Shown piece after piece: positions 4,291 to 36,800 of a DNA stretch of 39,758 nucleotides. The stretch comes from a virus, in the UHGV virus genome UHGV-0465656. One strand, 5' to 3'. Under the pieces are notes generated by a model, which was given only the letters and a program-made list of their open reading frames with translations, did no database searches and had not been told where the DNA came from. The position numbers and the translations under genes are program-made. Every line of letters begins with the position of its first letter. The first letter of the stretch is position 1.

Positions 4291-5586
4291 ATGACTCTCA
4301 AAGAAGGGCAGTTAGTTACTTACGCTATCGATGAAATCATCGAAACCGTCCAGAACCTGACGCCAATGGCGTCCAAAGTGACAAAATACACCCCTCCGGC
4401 AGAATCCATGCAGCGTTCAAGCAACACCGTGTGGATGCCTGTTGAGCAGGAAGCGCCAACGCAGACTGGCTGGGATTTAACTGGCAACGCAACTGGGATT
4501 CTGGAGCTGTCCGTGAAATGCAACATGGGCGATCCGGATAACGATTTCTTCGAGCTTCGTGCAGATGACCTGCGTGATGAGCGTTCTTACCGTCGCCGCA
4601 TCCAGGCATCCGCCAAAAAACTGGCGAATAACATTGAGTCAGCAATTGCCAAACAGGCAACTGAAATGGGCTCGCTTGTTGTTCACGATACCCGCGCAAT
4701 TGGTCCATCTACTGGCCTGTCTGGCTGGGATTTTGTGTCTGATGCAGAGCGCCTGATGTTCTCCCGTGAGCTAAACCGCGATATGGGCATCAGTTACTTC
4801 CTGAACCCTGACGATTACCGTAAAGCAGGCCGCAACCTGGTAGATGGTGACATCTTTGGGCGCGTTCCTGAAGAAGCGTATCGCAACGGTACTATTCAGC
4901 GTCAGATTGCTGGCTTTGATGAAATTCTTCGCTCACCGAAACTTCCGGCAGTTACCAAGTCAACCGCTACTGGTGTAACTGTTTCTGGTGCGCAGAAGTT
5001 TAAGCCGCAGGCATACACCCTTGATACCGATGGTAACAAAGAGAACGTCGACAACCGTGTTGCAACGGTGACCGTATCCTCCACCACCGGATTTAAGCGC
5101 GGCGACAAAATCAGTTTCACCGGTGTGAAATTCCTGTCTCAGATGGCGAAGAACGTGCTAACTGATGATGCGACTTTCTCAATCACCCGTGTGATCGATG
5201 GTACTCACATCGAAATCACGCCGAAACCGATTGCACTGGATGACGCGTCACTGACAAAAGAAGAGAAGGCTTACGCTAACGTAAACACCTCTCTTGCTGA
5301 TACCACTCCGGTAAACGTTCTGAACGTGGCAACAACCACCGCTAACGTGTTCTGGGCTGATGACTCAATCCGCCTGCTGTCTCAGCCGATTCCGGTAACC
5401 CATGAACTGTTTGCTGGCATGAAAACGTCTTCCTTCAGCATTCCAGGCATTGGTGTTAACGGCATCTTCGCAACGCAGGGTGATATCAACACTCTGTCTG
5501 GTAAGTGCCGTATTGCTGTGTGGTATTCAGCATGTGCTGTACGACCAGAGGCAATTGGTGTTGGTCTGCCTAACCAGACTGCGTGA
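4291..5586 (+). CDS. Major coat protein (P22 gp5-like, 431 aa)
   Basis: Near-colinear with recalled P22 coat: ..[64 protein letters not shown]. Confidence 0.92.
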
Positions 5587-14956: not shown

Positions 14957-15174
14957 GGTTTATTGAGGTTGATGAGATTGGCTATGAGAATGCACTTGGT
15001 AGAGGTAAATCTTTAGTTAACATTGATGGCATTGAATCGATAAGGAGTGGTGAATTTACGGAGATCAGAATGATGTCAGGCGGAATCATTCCTTGCCGTG
15101 ACTCAGTAGAGTCAATCAAATCAAAAATGAGTGGTCAGTGGCTTTATAGCTACAGTGACTTACAAAAACAGTGA
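14953..15174 (+). CDS. Hypothetical protein (73 aa) between arc and ant
   Basis: ATGA overlap with arc stop; no recognisable motif. Confidence 0.4.
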   Translation: MRFIEVDEIGYENALGRGKSLVNIDGIESIRSGEFTEIRMMSGGIIPCRDSVESIKSKMSGQWLYSYSDLQKQ

Positions 15175-15204
15175 AGCCCCAACTGCGGTAACAGTCAGGG
15201 CTTC
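15173..15204 (-). terminator. Candidate terminator hairpin for an antisense (sar-like) RNA in the orf73-ant junction
   Basis: Stem GAAGCCC/GGGCTTC with inner ACTG/CAGT; on minus strand followed by ACUGUUUUUG. Confidence 0.3.
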
Positions 15205-15236
15205 GGTATCAACAAAACTTACGAGGTATTATTGAT

Positions 15237-19679: not shown

Positions 19680-19880
19680 TTACCCATTGGCGCGGCTTAA
19701 GAGCTTATTTTTGAATTCACAATGGTCACGATATAACCATCTTGCTCGCCCGTGGATAACTTTGGCTTTTGGCAGGTCGCCGGACTTAATCCTGTCATAG
19801 ATGAAGGTTTTACCGAAGCCAGTATCAGCCATGATGAATTTCAAATCAACCAGTGAATCAGGTTGTAGTTCGTGTTGCAT
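19680..19880 (-). CDS. xis: Excisionase / AlpA-family DNA-binding protein
   Basis: ..MADTGFGKTFIYDRIKSGDLPKAKVIHGRARW.. AlpA-like helix-turn-helix; upstream of int on same strand; GGAGA ahead of ATG. Confidence 0.7.
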   Translation of the reverse strand: MQHELQPDSLVDLKFIMADTGFGKTFIYDRIKSGDLPKAKVIHGRARWLYRDHCEFKNKLLSRANG

Positions 19881-19899
19881 GAGTGCTATCTCCGAATAG

Positions 19900-19915
19900 G
19901 GAATCGAACCTGCAA
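19900..19915 (-). other. tRNA-like T-arm fragment: reverse complement TTGCAGGTTCGATTCC
   Basis: 16-mer with canonical GGTTCGATTCC T-loop, immediately upstream of xis; not a complete tRNA. Confidence 0.5.
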
Positions 19916-19922
19916 ATCAGGT

Positions 19923-19945: not shown

Positions 19946-20105
19946 CTTGGTGTTCTTTCAGTTCTTCAATTCGAATATTGGTTACGTCTGCATGTGCTAT
20001 CTGTGCCCATATCATCCAGTGGTCATAGCAGTCGTTGATGTCCTCTGCTTCGATAACTCTGTTGAATGGTTCTCCATTCCATTCTCCTGTGACTCGGAAG
20101 TGCAT
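19938..20105 (-). CDS. Small hypothetical protein (55 aa)
   Basis: Reverse-complement translation MHFRVTGEWNGEPFNRVIEAEDINDCYDHWMIWAQIAHADVTNIRIEELKEHQAA; below ORF-track cutoff. Confidence 0.4.
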   Translation of the reverse strand: MHFRVTGEWNGEPFNRVIEAEDINDCYDHWMIWAQIAHADVTNIRIEELKEHQAA

Positions 20106-20185
20106 TTATCATCTCCATAAAACAAAACTCGCCGTAGCGAGTTCAGATAAAAGAAATCCATCAATTGGTTAGGGTTTTTGTAATT

Positions 20186-20377
20186 CTACGAATTATGTTG
20201 TTTTTTAGCTTCATCTTTCCATTCATCAAAGGCAGTGTCTTTGTTCATGGTGCTGATATTGATCTTACGGTCAATATCATATACACGCCACTCACCGTTA
20301 GGCCTCTCTTCGCATCTAACTAAGTATGAATTGCCATTAATATCTATGCGTCTGTCTATTTGCATGAACATTTTCAA
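20186..20377 (-). CDS. Hypothetical protein (63 aa), AT-rich
   Basis: ORF track; no motif recognised. Confidence 0.4.
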   Translation of the reverse strand: MKMFMQIDRRIDINGNSYLVRCEERPNGEWRVYDIDRKINISTMNKDTAFDEWKDEAKKQHNS

Positions 20378-20487
20378 TTTTCGAATCCTCTTTAATATGC
20401 ATTTTTGCTATTTCAGTAGTTTACTATTGATGAGGCGTTATTATACACACTTCATTAATGCAAGCATCTTTATGCTATGCTACTAAT

Positions 20488-20769
20488 TTAGCAATTGATA
20501 TTCACCTTTATCGCGTATACCTTTACCGGCTTATCACCGAAGTGGGGGTGTGTGATTGTTTTCACTTCATATCCTCCATACGGAACATCAATTCTGCGAC
20601 TGGAGTCGTCGCGCTTCGGATATCCCTTTGTGATAATCAGGCGGTCATACTCCCGGAACATAATTCGCTTATTCCAATAGTCATTACACAGGCGATACTC
20701 TTCCGTTTTCTCTCCTCGAATCATGGCATCGAAGTATTCACCTTTGACGGCAAGTTGCAGGTTAGCCAT
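20488..20769 (-). CDS. Hypothetical protein (93 aa)
   Basis: ORF track; overlaps upstream gene stop. Confidence 0.45.
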   Translation of the reverse strand: MANLQLAVKGEYFDAMIRGEKTEEYRLCNDYWNKRIMFREYDRLIITKGYPKRDDSSRRIDVPYGGYEVKTITHPHFGDKPVKVYAIKVNINC

Positions 20770-21064
20770 GGTTAACCTCCTGCGGAGTAGCCTTTACAAG
20801 CACTGGTGTAAATCCATCTTCATTAAGGTTATGAATATAGACTTCCGTTCTCCTGCGCTCTTCAGCGTTTAATATGGTTTCTGGATCATAAACCCATACT
20901 TTCATTCGACTATTCCATGAAGAAATCGCTTCAGATTTAGTTCGTTTTTCTGGTCCTTGGGCACCACATTTGCATGACACATAGCGCATTTCCCCTCTGA
21001 TACTGAATGAGTATCCGATGTTAAGCACAGTGGAACCACAGAATGGGCAGCGATATAGATTCAT
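20762..21064 (-). CDS. Lar-family-like zinc-ribbon protein (putative restriction alleviation)
   Basis: N-terminus MNLYRCPFCGSTV..CKCG..SSWNSR, the CPFCG..C.CG pattern recalled for the Lar family. Confidence 0.55.
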   Translation of the reverse strand: MNLYRCPFCGSTVLNIGYSFSIRGEMRYVSCKCGAQGPEKRTKSEAISSWNSRMKVWVYDPETILNAEERRRTEVYIHNLNEDGFTPVLVKATPQEVNHG

Positions 21065-21837
21065 AAATCATCCACCTTAGGCGCAGCTGAGACAGCAACA
21101 TTCCAGAACTCAGAAAACATAATGTATGCACCAGATAGATTGGAAGTGGCATACCCTCCAAGCTCACTTCTAATCTGAACGGCTCTCATCATTTCCGGGG
21201 TTAACTCCTTCGGCACTATAACCCAACCATCCGGAGTTACCGGAGAGTTGCCAGCCTGAACAGTAGGCATATCCGGACCTTTGCGAATCGACCTGGCAAG
21301 ATCGATTGGGTCGTCGTATAACCAGTCACCTGTTTGCGGATGATTGGCTTCTGCCAATTGTGCAGCCCACTCCAGGCCGTCTTTGTGTCCTTGCAGATAG
21401 TCCAGCGGTAACTCATCACTATTACTTACAGGTTCGGCCTGAAGCATGGCGGCGCGATAGGCGTTCCAGCCGACAGCTTTTCCGTGTTCAAACGCGCTGT
21501 CAAAGTCATCATCAATTTCCATCGCAGCGGGCACAGATACCGGCGCTGGCTGGGCGGTGTAGAGCGGCATTACCTCAATATTGAAGATATCCCCCTCGCT
21601 TGGACACGCCTCTGCGCTACCGTAAACCCAATGGTGAACGACTCCGTTACGCTTGTTGATTAATCTGTGCGCCCACGCCACAGGCTCCGCTTCGAGCGAT
21701 GCCAGCGCGATACGCGCATTATTAATCAGGAGGATATCAGCAGGAAATAAAACAACATGAGCGTTTCCCTCCGCATCAATTTCAGAATTCGTAATTTTTC
21801 TGAACAGCTTTGCCAGTTCTTTGGTAATAGTGCTCAT
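21061..21837 (-). CDS. Hypothetical protein (258 aa from ATG 21837)
   Basis: ORF 21061..21876; start chosen at MSTITKELAKL with ATGA overlap to upstream stop. Confidence 0.5.
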   Translation of the reverse strand: MSTITKELAKLFRKITNSEIDAEGNAHVVLFPADILLINNARIALASLEAEPVAWAHRLINKRNGVVHHWVYGSAEACPSEGDIFNIEVMPLYTAQPAPVSVPAAMEIDDDFDSAFEHGKAVGWNAYRAAMLQAEPVSNSDELPLDYLQGHKDGLEWAAQLAEANHPQTGDWLYDDPIDLARSIRKGPDMPTVQAGNSPVTPDGWVIVPKELTPEMMRAVQIRSELGGYATSNLSGAYIMFSEFWNVAVSAAPKVDDL

Positions 21838-22079
21838 GACTGCATTCCCTCCACGCGAGCTTCTATCATGCCCCACACAACTTCGTGCTCAGGCCAGTCG
21901 CTTTCAACAACGACACATGACAGTTCGTCTTTACCGCGCTGCTGCCGAACTTGTTTTACTGCAAGCGCAGCATTTTCCAGCCCGTCCAGCGTTTCAGGAG
22001 AGATCAAACCAGTTTGAAAGGCAGCCTCAATGTCAGAAACCTTCAGAACGAAATAACGATTTTCTCTTTTCACGTTCAC
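21834..22079 (-). CDS. Hypothetical protein (81 aa)
   Basis: ORF track; translationally coupled chain. Confidence 0.45.
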   Translation of the reverse strand: MNVKRENRYFVLKVSDIEAAFQTGLISPETLDGLENAALAVKQVRQQRGKDELSCVVVESDWPEHEVVWGMIEARVEGMQS

Positions 22080-22369
22080 TCTCCTTTACCGGCTGCGGCG
22101 GCCGACTCTTCATAGGCGCGTTTGGATGCATTCATAATGGCCGCCAGCGGTGAGTAAGCCCCTCCACCTGTGATAGTGTTGTGAATGGCAGCCATTGCCT
22201 CGCGCAGATTTCCGTGGCTCGCCTCCAGCTCAGCAATCCTCTTCTCTGCGGCCTCCAGCTCATCCAGCAGCGCCAGAACGGTTTGTGAATGTATATCCAT
22301 GTTGAACACGCCATGCTCTTGAGCTTTCTCTGCTGTTTTGCGCAGCGCCTGTTTGTCGATGTTGCTCAT
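22076..22369 (-). CDS. Hypothetical coiled-coil protein (97 aa)
   Basis: Start MSNIDKQALRK at 22369 (ATGA overlap); shares N-terminal pattern with the next gene. Confidence 0.5.
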   Translation of the reverse strand: MSNIDKQALRKTAEKAQEHGVFNMDIHSQTVLALLDELEAAEKRIAELEASHGNLREAMAAIHNTITGGGAYSPLAAIMNASKRAYEESAAAAGKGE

Positions 22370-23058
22370 TGGGCGGCCTCCTTGCGAAGTTGGGCGGCGC
22401 GAATTGCTTTCCACTGCGACCACATTCCGTTGTAATCAGTACCGGAAAGAGTTGAGTTGCGGTAGCCGTCATCAGTGCGCAAACCTTCTAGCGTGGTCTT
22501 AGAGATGAATATCTTCTCCATTACCCATTCTTCGAATAAATCACGCTCCGTCGCTTCATCTGGAATAGCACTTGCCCGTACTTCAGCCAGGAAAGCGTCG
22601 GTGGCTGGGGTTTTGTTATCTGACTCCAGCCACTGGTTGTAGTAATAATCGAACATGCCAGTAGGATAACCACATCCGCTGTGCACGTGGTCTTTCATAG
22701 CAGAACCACACATGCAGTAGTCATTGTCAGTATTACTAATGATGTCGATAAGTTGCTGTGTCCGTTGCTTCAACATCGCACTCTCCGCCGCCAGCGCCGA
22801 AAACTTCTCGTGTGCCAACTTAACAGCTGCATCAGCCTGCTTAATTGACTCAGTCGCTTTCTGGTGGTCTTCGGCCAGCCCTGCTAAATCAGCCTCCAGT
22901 TCGGCTAGGCGTTCATTTAATGCATCTCGTTCATCCAGTAGAGCCAGCACAACCTGAGGTGTGACTTTCATACGAAATGCCAGCAATTTTTGAGGTGTTG
23001 CTACTGTTTCAATTGCTACTGCTGCCTCACGCAGTGCCTGATAGTTAATTTTGCTCAC
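22366..23058 (-). CDS. Hypothetical protein (230 aa, GTG start), N-terminal coiled coil, Cys/His-containing C-terminal domain
   Basis: (M)[16 protein letters not shown]..; paralogous N-terminus to the 22076..22369 product. Confidence 0.5.
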   Translation of the reverse strand: MSKINYQALREAAVAIETVATPQKLLAFRMKVTPQVVLALLDERDALNERLAELEADLAGLAEDHQKATESIKQADAAVKLAHEKFSALAAESAMLKQRTQQLIDIISNTDNDYCMCGSAMKDHVHSGCGYPTGMFDYYYNQWLESDNKTPATDAFLAEVRASAIPDEATERDLFEEWVMEKIFISKTTLEGLRTDDGYRNSTLSGTDYNGMWSQWKAIRAAQLRKEAAQ

Positions 23059-23636
23059 TGGTTGCCTCCTTTGCGAAGCTGGGCGGCGATATCTTCGAGA
23101 ACGCCATCAGAGAATGAGCGGTCAAAATCTCCTTCCGGTGCATTAGCCATAAACTCAGTTGAGGTAAGAATCATCCGGGCAATATCCGCTGCGTTCTTCG
23201 CAGTATCATCAATAAAACCAGCTTCCCAGGCAGCCAGCATTCTGTTCGCCACAAAGTAAGCGCCTTCCTTGCGTGCTTCAGTCTTCACTTCATCCCAAAA
23301 AGCGTCGGTGACTTGGGTTTGCGGCATCCTTCCGTCTATTGCGCAGATATACGCATCAGATAGTTCACCCTGCTCGCCGTCAAACACGTAGCAACTCTGT
23401 ACGATAAATTTATTCAGCCACGCATTCTCCACAGCCAGCGCCGCGCACTTGGCCTCAAGGTTATCAATCGTGATTCCAGCAGAACGACACTCCCGCAACG
23501 CCGTTTCCAGTTTTGATTCAAGTTCACCGAACTTACGGACAAGGTATTCAGCGTTTGTTTCGTTAACCTTTAAATCTCGTGGGATGCATTTACCTTTCAG
23601 AAAACCATCCATCTCAATTAGTGACATTTGTTTCAT
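23055..23636 (-). CDS. Hypothetical protein (193 aa)
   Basis: ORF track; C-terminus ..[10 protein letters not shown] overlaps next start with the conserved junction motif. Confidence 0.5.
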
Positions 23637-23830
23637 TTTTTCCCACTCCGAAACATCGCATTCAGATATTTGTTGTCATTAACAGAACCGAAACTCTTTC
23701 TCTTAAGCAATTCCTCTCTCGATAGCATTGGCTTTACGCGTTGGCGAATAATCATTTCTGCCGGAAGAATGCCGGGATTGTATGCAAGTCCTCTCATGGT
23801 AAATTCCTCAGTCATTACTGATAGCGCCAT
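23633..23830 (-). CDS. Hypothetical protein (65 aa)
   Basis: ORF track. Confidence 0.4.
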
Positions 23831-24104
23831 AGCGTGAGCGGTAATTACGCAGGCGCGGGTCGATATATTCAGGGAATTTGTCTATTGTCGCTTTTCGCAA
23901 CGGTCGCATTGCTGTTTCGTTTGTTCGGTCCCTCTCATCTTTTAACGCGAGCTGTATATCGCGTCGGTACATCCGTTCTGCTTTTGTTTCTGGTGGCAGA
24001 GCAAGAAACGCGTCGAAAATGTTTTTGATATTTTCCAGCACCTCCGACTTGGAGCTACCGGAGCAGTTGCGCGCGTCGTCCGCACCATACAGAGGCGCTG
24101 GCAT
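23808..24104 (-). CDS. Hypothetical protein (98 aa)
   Basis: ORF track. Confidence 0.4.
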
Positions 24105-24127
24105 AATGGAATCCTTATGTTGCTACT

Positions 24128-24511
24128 TTAGAAGGGAATTGAATCGTCGTATTCAGGATGATTTTGATGATTGCTACTTTGCTGCTGTTGGCTGTTTCCT
24201 GAGGTTGCAAATCCAATCTTTGCATTCAGTAATTCAAGAGTGATTGATTGACCATTTTGCCCCTGATAAACATCAACCCTGATGTTTTCTCCGGTAATTT
24301 CCACAATGCCACCTTCAACAAGAACACTACGGTAGTAATCCGCTTGCGCTCCCGGCTTGGCAAATACAACGGCGCTGTAGTTTGTCCATTCTTTCTTTTT
24401 TGTCTGGCGATCGTAATACTGAACGCCAGCACGGATGTTGAATCCGATATTTTCCCCGGCCTGAAACTCTCTTGCTGGCTTGTTTAGTCTTACAGTAATC
24501 GAATGTGCCAT
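24128..24511 (-). CDS. SSB-like single-stranded DNA-binding protein (127 aa) with acidic C-terminal tail ..EYDDSIPF
   Basis: Start MAHSITVRLNK at 24511; C-terminal DDSIPF resembles the bacterial SSB DDDIPF tail; directly downstream of erf. Confidence 0.6.
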   Translation of the reverse strand: MAHSITVRLNKPAREFQAGENIGFNIRAGVQYYDRQTKKKEWTNYSAVVFAKPGAQADYYRSVLVEGGIVEITGENIRVDVYQGQNGQSITLELLNAKIGFATSGNSQQQQSSNHQNHPEYDDSIPF

Positions 24512-25116
24512 TAAGCAGCCGCTCCTTCTAATTCGTCTCGTCTGATGTTGTAAACGTCCTGCGCTTTGTGCTGCTCCGGTGTGCCTTCGAGCATCTTCCA
24601 CGCTTTGGCGAACGCCTGTTTAAGCTCTTCTACGGTGTTTTTCTGCATTGCTGCGTCAGTGAATGCTTTTAGAACCTGTTCAGGTGTAGGTGATGGTTTT
24701 GATTGCTTTGCTGCTGCGTTCTGCTGATGTTTATGCTCGTCTGTATCTGCATCTTTCGCATCATCAATGCCGAACAAACCATTGAGGCAATACTTGCGCG
24801 CATAAGAACTTGTAGCTCCAGTAACTTGTGCAGAATCCATTCCTTTCTTGCTTTCTTCCTCTCGTGCAAGAGCGGTTGCCGTATGACTGTTTTCGCCATC
24901 GGTAATAGTTGCCGTAGCTTTCACGTAATACCGATCACCAATCAACACAACTTCATCGCTGATTGATAAAAACAGGCCATTCAGTAACGGCTTAACGCCT
25001 TCAAGAATGTCTTCGCAGCTTCTGTATTTATATTTGCCGAATGAGTTGTACTGATTCTTTGGCGCGTTCAGATTCTCCTGAATAGCTGCCAGTCTTGCGT
25101 AAAATTCTTTGCTCAT
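24511..25116 (-). CDS. erf: Erf recombination protein (single-strand annealing)
   Basis: MSKEFYARLAAIQENLNAPKNQYNSFGKYKYRSCEDILEGVKPLL..ATATITDGENSH..GATSSYARKYCLNGLFGIDDAKD, near-identical to recalled P22 Erf. Confidence 0.9.
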   Translation of the reverse strand: MSKEFYARLAAIQENLNAPKNQYNSFGKYKYRSCEDILEGVKPLLNGLFLSISDEVVLIGDRYYVKATATITDGENSHTATALAREEESKKGMDSAQVTGATSSYARKYCLNGLFGIDDAKDADTDEHKHQQNAAAKQSKPSPTPEQVLKAFTDAAMQKNTVEELKQAFAKAWKMLEGTPEQHKAQDVYNIRRDELEGAAA

Positions 25117-25217
25117 ATGATTGTTCTCAGAATGGACACGGCCCAAGGAAATAACGCTGATTTAATACTTCGACTCGTGACAAATTAAGGCATACCCGCA
25201 TTCCTTCGCGGTCGCCA

Positions 25218-25543: not shown

Positions 25544-25776
25544 AGGATGCTCCTTCTGTTTTATTGCATAACGAAAACGCCTCGAATGAAGCGTTATTGG
25601 TATGCATATAAAAAGGCCCTCACACTGGAGGGCAAAGAAGATTTCCAATAATCAGAACAAGTCGGCTCCTGTTTAGTTACGAGCGACATTGCTCCGTGTA
25701 TTCACTCGTTGGAATGAATACACAATGCAGTATTTATTCTGTTGTTTATGCCAAAAATAAAGGCCGACTATGCTTC

Positions 25777-28792: not shown

Positions 28793-28826
28793 TGTAGAAA
28801 GACTGGATCAATCCACAGGAGTAATT

Positions 28827-28988
28827 ATGACAAAACGTCGTAAGAAATACCAGGAAAAAGAAGAGATTCGACACCCTGATTCACCTGAGGGATTAGTGGT
28901 AGCCGCAGCAAATAACAGGGCGTTCGCAGAGCGCCTTGTTGGTGTTTACAGACTAGCCAAAGCAGGAGTGAAACATGGGCGTCGTTAA
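28827..28988 (+). CDS. Small hypothetical protein (53 aa)
   Basis: ATG at 28827 after AGGAG; [53 protein letters not shown]; overlaps O-like start. Confidence 0.35.
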   Translation: MTKRRKKYQEKEEIRHPDSPEGLVVAAANNRAFAERLVGVYRLAKAGVKHGRR

Positions 28989-36366: not shown

Positions 36367-36800
36367 GCAGAGTAACCGCGATTATCTCCGCTCTGGTTAT
36401 CTGCATCATCGTTTGCCTGTCATGGGCTGTTAATCATTACCGTGATAACGCCATCGCCTATAAAGAACAGCGCGATAAGGCCACATCCACAATCGCTGAC
36501 ATGCAGAAGCGTCAACGTGATGTAGCAGAACTTGACGCCAGATACACAAAGGAGCTTGCTGATGCTAACGCGACTATTGAAAGTCTCCGTGCTGATGTTT
36601 CTGCTGGGCGTAAGCGCCTGCAAGTCGCCGCCACCTGTGCAAAGTCAACGACCGGAGCCAGCGGCATGGGCGATGGAGAAAGCCCAGGACTTACAGCAGA
36701 TGCTGAACTCAATTATTACCGTCTCCGAAGTGGAATCGACAAGATAACCGCGCAGGTTAACTACCTGCAGGAATATATCAACACGCAGTGCCTGAAATGA
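36363..36800 (+). CDS. Rz: Rz i-spanin (lambda-like N-terminus, divergent C-terminal half)
   Basis: [31 protein letters not shown].. as recalled for lambda Rz, then diverges. Confidence 0.88.
36562..36747 (+). CDS. Rz1: Rz1 o-spanin lipoprotein embedded in +1 frame of Rz
   Basis: [36 protein letters not shown]..: signal peptide, lipobox Cys, Pro-rich. Confidence 0.8.

Follow-up and report, generated by a model that had tools for sequence, protein, structure and literature searches.

The subject of this study is a short patch of DNA repeated at the joints between three consecutive small genes, here called A, B, and C, in UHGV virus genome UHGV-0465656, a stretch of 39,758 nucleotides that is referred to in its entirety as the window. 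Every gene of the junction region lies on the minus strand, with A, B, and C chained consecutively as read from the sequence, and the order along that strand is erf, an SSB-like gene, abc2, a DUF2737 gene, A, B, and C, a layout shared by phages Sf6 and HK620. The locus corresponds to the “ea” section of the early-left operon in a P22-like phage. An earlier interpretation made from the DNA letters, hereafter the sequence-only reading, had already placed it in that operon, in agreement with the presence of abc2, DUF2737, and Erf on the same minus strand. Judged by its sequence, the patch is bsq3, a boundary sequence already known from lambdoid and P22-like phages, and its recovery here is a confirmation, not a discovery.

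Gene A is the EaE counterpart, its tail being encoded by 27 nt that match the end of P22 eaE with 100% identity. It reaches no Pfam threshold and is related to Ead/Ea22 proteins only at the PHROG level (phrog_614/368), whereas B and C are members of the Ead/Ea22-like family (PF13935; lambda Ea22, P22 EaD), scoring 40.9 and 40.6 bits, respectively, against a gathering cut-off of 27, with B also matching phrog_368 at 1.1e-43. The PHROG matches of all three genes are to phrog_368, phrog_614, or phrog_14548. This family membership concerns the proteins, not the DNA junction. The N-termini of B and C are 44% identical over the first 63 aa (E=3e-11), which, together with their common Pfam family, would fit the N-terminal coiled-coil pattern that the sequence-only reading had attributed to both. 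A and B share three short collinear DNA patches (repeats D3, D7, and D1) and the same PHROGs; BLASTP alone gave no significant match between them, and a search of solved structures with A and B returned no meaningful matches. In published Ea22 proteins, a short N-terminal domain is accompanied by a coiled coil and by variable C-terminal domains that close with a K/RGE motif (PMC10834534, PMC7093339), an architecture that fits the mosaic proteins found downstream of the junction.

Table 1. Coordinates of the junctions, genes, and other features in the window; counts refer to the 80 comparison loci described in the text.
Feature	Coordinates	Strand	Description
Gene A	23055..23636	-	193 aa, P22 EaE-like; open reading frame list, PHROG phrog_14548/614/368; upstream module of junction 1
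Gene B	22366..23058	-	230 aa, Ead/Ea22-like; GTG start; ends in IRAAQLRKEAAQ and stop (..AAQLRKEAAQ-stop)
Gene C	22076..22369	-	97 aa, Ead/Ea22-like; ATG start; P22 EaD-type head MSNIDKQALR
Junction 1 (A/B joint)	23019-23089		stop-start overlap GTGA at 23055-23058
Junction 1 head	23026..23058	-	first 11 codons of B, bsq3-type; common to 57-60 of 80 loci
Junction 1 tail	23059..23075	-	last A codons R-K-G-G-N-Q, which are the Shine-Dalgarno AAAGGAGG, 6 nt before the B GTG; 51-52 of 80 loci
Junction 1 tail extension	23076..23089	-	encodes ..AAQL, outer half of the motif; conserved C-terminal end of EaE-like/“TDAFLAEVRA” proteins
Junction 2 (B/C joint)	22323-22399		stop-start overlap ATGA at 22366-22369
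Junction 2 head	22323..22369	-	first ~15 codons of C (ATGAGCAACATCGACAAACAGGCGCTGCGC..), P22 eaD-type boundary-sequence variant; nhmmer 25.8 bits, E=2.9e-6
Junction 2 tail	22370..22399	-	..AAQLRKEAAQ, Shine-Dalgarno AAGGAGG 7 nt before the C ATG
Third chained junction	22076-22095	-	end of C and start of the next gene
DUF2737 gene	23633-23830	-	Pfam scan
abc2 (Abc2 anti-RecBCD)	23808-24104	-	Pfam scan
127-aa open reading frame	24128-24511	-	between erf and abc2
Erf single-strand annealing recombinase (Rad52-like)	24511..25116	-	Pfam PF04404, 2.1e-44
bsq2	19683-19921		98% identity to Sf6
bsq4	25616-25724		100% identity to Sf6
bsq5	28802-28834		97% identity to Sf6
bsq7	36432-36478		91% identity to Sf6
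sar antisense RNA	15170-15235	-	Rfam RF00262, 62.8 bits

The two joints, whose gene-strand sequences are CGCCGCCCAGCTTCGCAAAGGAGGCAACCAGTGAGCAAAATTAACTATCAGGCACTGCGTGAG and CGCCGCCCAACTTCGCAAGGAGGCCGCCCAATGAGCAACATCGACAAACAGGCGCTGCGCAAA, align as a repeat of 70 nt with 74% identity (D1, 22330-22399 versus 23019-23088) that extends over the opening ~13 codons of the gene that follows; the head peptide of one downstream gene within this repeat is MSNIDKQALRKTA. The sequence-only reading had described a motif of about 30 bp at the successive gene boundaries 22365..22399 and 23054..23089, and the repetition stands, with an extent longer than proposed. The 23-mer of this motif, CCTCCTTGCGAAGYTGGGCGGCG, occurs only at 22377-22399 with no mismatch and at 23066-23088 with three mismatches in the ungapped register, which stem from a 1-nt indel, and 100 shuffles yielded no match to it. 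Each joint carries, as had also been described, the end of one gene (..AAQLRK..Q-stop), a ribosome-binding site, and the start of the next gene within a GTGA or ATGA overlap. In the manner of translationally coupled overlapping genes, for which a spacing of 5-9 nt is expected, both junctions combine the stop-start overlap with a Shine-Dalgarno sequence that lies inside the upstream coding sequence, at 6 nt in junction 1 and 7 nt in junction 2, and the overlaps would be expected to couple translation of the two genes.

The 1-nt indel sits just ahead of GGAGG, as a deletion in junction 2, and places the two tails in different frames (..RKGGNQ-stop versus ..RKEAAQ-stop). Since AAGGAGG is kept despite this frame shift, it is conserved as DNA, namely as the Shine-Dalgarno sequence 6-7 nt before the next start, and not as peptide. 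The heads of the two junctions are identical at 22 of 31 positions, and the longest exact run between the two copies in the window is 8 nt. Neighboring genes are homologous over the segments that bear the repeat, as tandem paralogues are, and the motif is present twice in the window because of this paralogy, A and B sharing the tail, and B and C sharing the head. A third junction of like architecture follows in the same chain, where C ends in ..GKGE-stop (GGT AAA GGA GAG TGA) and the GTG of the next gene overlaps the stop (GTGA). The C-terminal KGE of gene C is thereby an in-frame Shine-Dalgarno sequence, which may explain the K/RGE motif of Ea22 proteins (PMC7093339).

The identity of the patch follows from comparison with Sf6, whose RefSeq record NC_005344.1 carries a feature “bsq3; boundary sequence” at 19844-19874, at the start of Sf6 gene 21. 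That sequence (TGAGCAAGATTGACTATCAGGCACTGCGTGA) is identical to window positions 23027-23057 at 29 of 31 sites, with the BLAST match sitting on the annotated feature. The same score, 29/31, is obtained between the head of HK620 hkaG and the junction 1 head and between the head of P22 eaD and the junction 2 head. No bsq features are annotated in the ea region of the HK620 RefSeq record, and a literature search on Sf6 boundary sequences found no papers. The bsq3 boundary sequence of phage HK620 was reportedly described by Clark et al. in 2001 (J Mol Biol 311:657). Besides its sequence, the patch shares with the Sf6 and HK620 element its position in the early-left (pL) operon, where it marks the 5′ start of an ead/Ea22-like gene on the downstream side of abc2, and its behavior as a short conserved patch with non-homologous flanks and reassorting modules.

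Some differences from the annotated Sf6 feature are also evident. The latter comprises the 31-nt head only, whereas in the window, as in 38 of 55 distinct copies, the unit extends ~17 nt upstream through the Shine-Dalgarno sequence and the last upstream codons, this inner tail being CGCAAAGGAGGCAACCA. In a subset of copies another ~12 nt (AAQL) is included, the portion that the sequence-only reading had seen, and the window holds a second copy, which is diverged and belongs to the P22 eaD type. Of the five other Sf6 boundary sequences, four have full or near-full matches in the window (Table 1). The element is widespread: a 78-nt query over junction 1 matched 530 places in 479 phage records, the 5′ end of lambda ea22 included, and the junction is present in 1038 of 5426 complete E. 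coli genomes. Among the 1298 copies in these complete genomes, 293 lie on plasmid records, presumably phage-plasmids.

Mosaic structure was examined in 80 IMG/VR loci, selected as the best abc2 matches and compared by local blastn with window positions 20000-25200. The segment 23027-23075 is common to 51-60 of these loci, and either flank to only 4-6. Beyond it, coverage across 23076..23089 drops from 46 to 28, 17, and 9 loci. The corresponding island of junction 2 (22323-22389) is found in 10-14 loci, and its flanks in 0-2. Of 732 BLAST segment ends, 124 (17%) fall on the 88 nt of the island edges, against 1.7% expected, an enrichment whose p-value is indicative only, given that the zones were picked after data inspection and that related loci were compared. 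Named phages have their breaks in the same place, with Sf101 sharing the stretch from A to abc2 with the window and breaking at 23067, and HK97, HK446, and HK544 breaking at 23020. Mosaic breakpoints thus coincide with the junction, and the exchange zone is centered on the head of the downstream gene. Paralogy without any association to breakpoints, which the sequence-only reading had named as the outcome that would tell against it in a comparison with related phages, is not what these loci display.

The modules on either side of the junction are extensively reassorted. A profile search recovered 96 copies of the patch in 70 of 83 sequences, two copies being present in 26 of them. When the 200-nt flanks of the 68 distinct copies were clustered, 25 upstream and 19 downstream types appeared in 47 combinations, including 13 four-gamete quartets. 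The upstream partners comprise unrelated genes, such as those encoding DUF2737, EaE-like, Sf6 gp22-like, and DksA-like zinc-finger proteins, and the downstream partners nearly all encode mosaic Ead/Ea22-like proteins.

The point at which linkage changes from one flank to the other was located by adjusted mutual information (AMI) between individual sites, numbered from the start codon of the downstream gene, and flank type. Sites at or before 0, the start codon, are tied to the upstream type (AMI 0.2-0.7), sites at or beyond +39 to the downstream type (AMI 0.2-0.8, mostly >0.3), and sites +4 to +33 to neither. Individual loci place the switch in the same interval. The window, with its A and B genes, is near-identical to two loci that join A to other genes (L056 and L020) up to about +32, and to two loci that join DUF2737 to B (L015 and L075) from -16 onward, leaving -16 to +32, or 23026-23074, as the interval common to all five. 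For the homology patch that the sequence-only reading had proposed for module exchange, this means that breakpoints do lie at the junction, and that the switch zone, 23026-23058, is mostly outside the positions it had indicated. The motif it had noted (AAQLRK plus Shine-Dalgarno) is mostly upstream tail and travels mainly with the upstream gene.

The tail itself is informative about what is being transferred. The AAQL extension stands beside 13 of the 55 distinct heads, 12 of which also have the inner tail, and the full 24-mer occurs in 19 of the 80 loci. Some upstream genes read the tail DNA in another frame (..KKEAVSEQN-stop), and the C-terminus of DUF2737 varies with the downstream neighbor. 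It reads ..NAMFRSGKK-stop in the window, where gene A is next, and ..NAMWRKGGNQ-stop in a cluster of 19 copies (U0) in which an Ead/Ea22 head usually follows. Because the tail is attached to unrelated proteins, the transferable unit begins ~17 nt within the upstream gene and includes the downstream ribosome-binding site, written into the last upstream codons, which accounts for the shared protein tails. The recurrent ..KGGNQ-stop and ..KGE-stop protein ends are, in large part, in-frame readings of the Shine-Dalgarno sequence.

Two copies that reside in the same genome usually differ more than copies taken from separate genomes do, with a median longest exact run of 8 nt within a genome and 21 nt across genomes (n=8, p=0.003). 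Such divergence would protect the intervening gene from deletion and fits a recombination substrate. One locus (L042) is an exception, carrying 98%-identical copies at 4897 and 5526, 629 nt apart, and is predicted to be deletion-prone. Apart from the two junctions, further short islands were observed at 22574-22613, 23413-23456, 23523-23650, 21223-21252, 20730-20785, and 20100-20159, each in 31-46 of the 80 loci and with flanks in few or none. Two of them lie inside A and B, corresponding to the “PATDAFLAEV” patch and the end of the coiled coil, and are repeated between A and B as D7 and D3; one comprises the first ~38 codons of gene A, and one spans the junction between a Lar-like gene and the next gene. 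These islands suggest domain-level shuffling within Ead/EaE-like proteins.

Direct observation covers the anatomy of the joints, the match of the patch to bsq3, its island structure, the reassortment of its flanks, and where linkage switches. The best explanation of these observations, which we hold to be probable, is a conserved patch of ~50 nt at the joint across which genes are exchanged by homologous recombination. The joint consists of three layers, namely the last 6-10 upstream codons (..[AAQL]RKGGNQ-stop or ..RKEAAQ-stop), in which AAGGAGG doubles as the Shine-Dalgarno sequence of the next gene; the stop-start overlap, GTGA or ATGA; and the ~11 codons that open the Ead/Ea22-like gene (MSKI[D/N]YQALRE), corresponding to bsq3. 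Recombination within the patch (23026-23074) might occur during co-infection or upon infection of a lysogen, catalyzed by the RecA of the host or by phage Rad52-like annealing recombinases, such as the Erf whose gene lies ~1.5 kb upstream. The outcome would be whole genes swapped in frame, with the ribosome-binding site and start preserved. We infer homologous recombination, and Erf in particular, as the cause of the exchanges, and the bsq3 patch may accordingly be called a putative focus of homologous recombination.

Work on related systems bears on this mechanism. Rad52-like recombinases, including an Erf, have been found in experiments to recombine short or diverged homologies far better than RecA does and were linked to lambdoid mosaicism; with the Erf-family recombinase of phage D3, both identical substrates and substrates of 78% identity recombined at higher efficiency than by the RecA pathway (PMC3945230). 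The present locus resembles that described by De Paepe et al. 2014 (PMC3945230) in having a Rad52-like recombinase (Erf) in the operon and mosaic pieces bounded by short or diverged homology, and differs in that their exchanges were measured on substrates other than this ~50-nt patch and with recombinases other than the Erf of this phage. The boundary-sequence model is credited to Clark et al. 2001 (HK620) and to Susskind and Botstein 1978 (PMC3029335). The modular theory of Susskind and Botstein likewise envisages interchangeable modules joined by short shared linkers, and the reassortment matrix is its predicted outcome; here, in contrast, the linker is coding on both sides instead of intergenic, and each module is one small accessory gene, not a functional block.

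Several observations weigh against recombination within the patch, and some of them favor another account, in which paralogy and functional conservation suffice, the duplicated Ead/Ea22/EaE ends being kept by selection on the proteins and the ribosome-binding site, the flanks being brought together by illegitimate recombination (Hendrix/Juhala model), and the patch being a passenger. The 80 sampled loci are related and not independent, and the two copies of the window are too diverged for efficient recombination with each other. Head and tail are separable, with 17 of 55 heads lacking the tail and 18 of 59 tails lacking the head. In P22, the eaE tail is followed by an unrelated gene (eaE/orf45), and some joints are thus at patch edges, as illegitimate recombination plus selection would also give. 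Island diversity is of the coding type, at 0.31 for position 3, 0.20 for position 1, and 0.14 for position 2. This pattern, together with a diversity above that of abc2, implies that protein-level constraint on the N-terminal peptide contributes to conservation. Many pairs of head sites 2-10 nt apart show all four haplotypes, which suggests homoplasy. Recurrent mutation explains them no less easily than crossovers would, and the missing linkage in the core is therefore no proof of exchange within the core. Additionally, the excess of island mismatches in pairs that are homologous on both sides is marginal (0.066 versus 0.042/0.057, p=0.055). The account by paralogy is further favored by the homology of the B and C N-termini, by the three collinear patches and PHROGs common to A and B, by the Ead/Ea22-like nature of almost all downstream genes, which would allow the head to be a family signature, and by the rarity of boundary sequences at phage mosaic joints in general, most of which have none (PMC3029335). 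Against it, unrelated upstream families carry the same ~17-nt tail with its Shine-Dalgarno sequence, sometimes in another frame, which argues for conservation at the DNA level. In the head, Ala, Leu, and Arg codons are 82-90% invariant at position 3, next to flanks that cannot be aligned, so that the copies of the island are young relative to their flanks. Moreover, the 47 combinations and 13 quartets would need many independent illegitimate in-frame events within one ~50-nt interval, and both “parents” of each inferred exchange already have the patch. On balance, we consider paralogy with conserved function alone an unlikely explanation. Hyper-conservation of the head at the nucleotide level was ruled out, core diversity being 0.21 against 0.042 for abc2 and highest at position 3, then 1, then 2.

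An element acting at the RNA level, be it a translational-coupling structure, a target of an RNase or small RNA, or a regulatory site in the pL transcript, would make recombination incidental. The perfect Shine-Dalgarno sequence AAGGAGG at 6-7 nt before the start, its conservation across different upstream reading frames, and the conserved stop-start overlaps speak for such an element. However, the folding of the two junctions is not unusually stable relative to shuffles (z = 0.19 and 0.98), an Rfam scan of the whole window returned only the sar RNA listed in Table 1 and none at the junctions, and the Shine-Dalgarno sequence accounts for positions -15 to -5 but not for the conserved head at +1 to +32. 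This leaves an RNA-level function as the explanation very improbable, and a structured RNA element was dropped on the same Rfam and folding results. A promoter or terminator at the junction was likewise dropped, candidate sites being at background level. Chance similarity of the two junctions, to which only the short length of the motif lends itself, is refuted by the absence of matches in 100 shuffles, by the 70-nt repeat, and by the hundreds of homologous copies in other phages, and its probability is negligible.

Beyond exchange at a single passive patch by homologous recombination, the head, the tail, and the internal patches (LALLDE, TDAFLAEVRA, and KGE/KGGNQ) could together form a cassette-exchange system for polymorphic early accessory proteins. 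The linkers would then be selected for rapid in-frame shuffling of effector domains, like polymorphic toxin loci with conserved N-termini, and copies in the same genome would be kept diverged against self-deletion. We regard this as a speculative and rather improbable extension; a stronger version of it would make the patch an actively stimulated Erf/Abc2 hotspot and not passive homology.

It has long been debated whether the mosaicism of phages comes about through homologous exchange at short conserved linkers or through illegitimate recombination with subsequent selection, and the bsq3 locus is one of the few places for which linkers have been proposed. The junction result leaves current understanding unchanged, and what it adds is quantitative, namely the reassortment matrix, the linkage switch within ~35 nt, and figures for the prevalence of the patch, which ~70% of the 80 related ea regions and ~19% of the complete E. 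coli genomes contain. As a natural in-frame swap site, the patch can help in the annotation and engineering of lambdoid and P22-like phages.

With respect to the surroundings of the locus, the nearest database relatives of the window are the E. coli phages Dewey, CurroJimenez_Bas106, Louie, and IME10, none of which covers at least 80% of it. The 127-aa open reading frame between erf and abc2, which is without a Pfam match, ends in ..PEYDDSIPF and resembles the acidic C-terminal tip of bacterial SSB; at the equivalent place, the Sf6 record has SSB and an SSB-tail-bearing protein. Farther away, the sar antisense RNA points to a P22-type immI (ant/arc/mnt) region.

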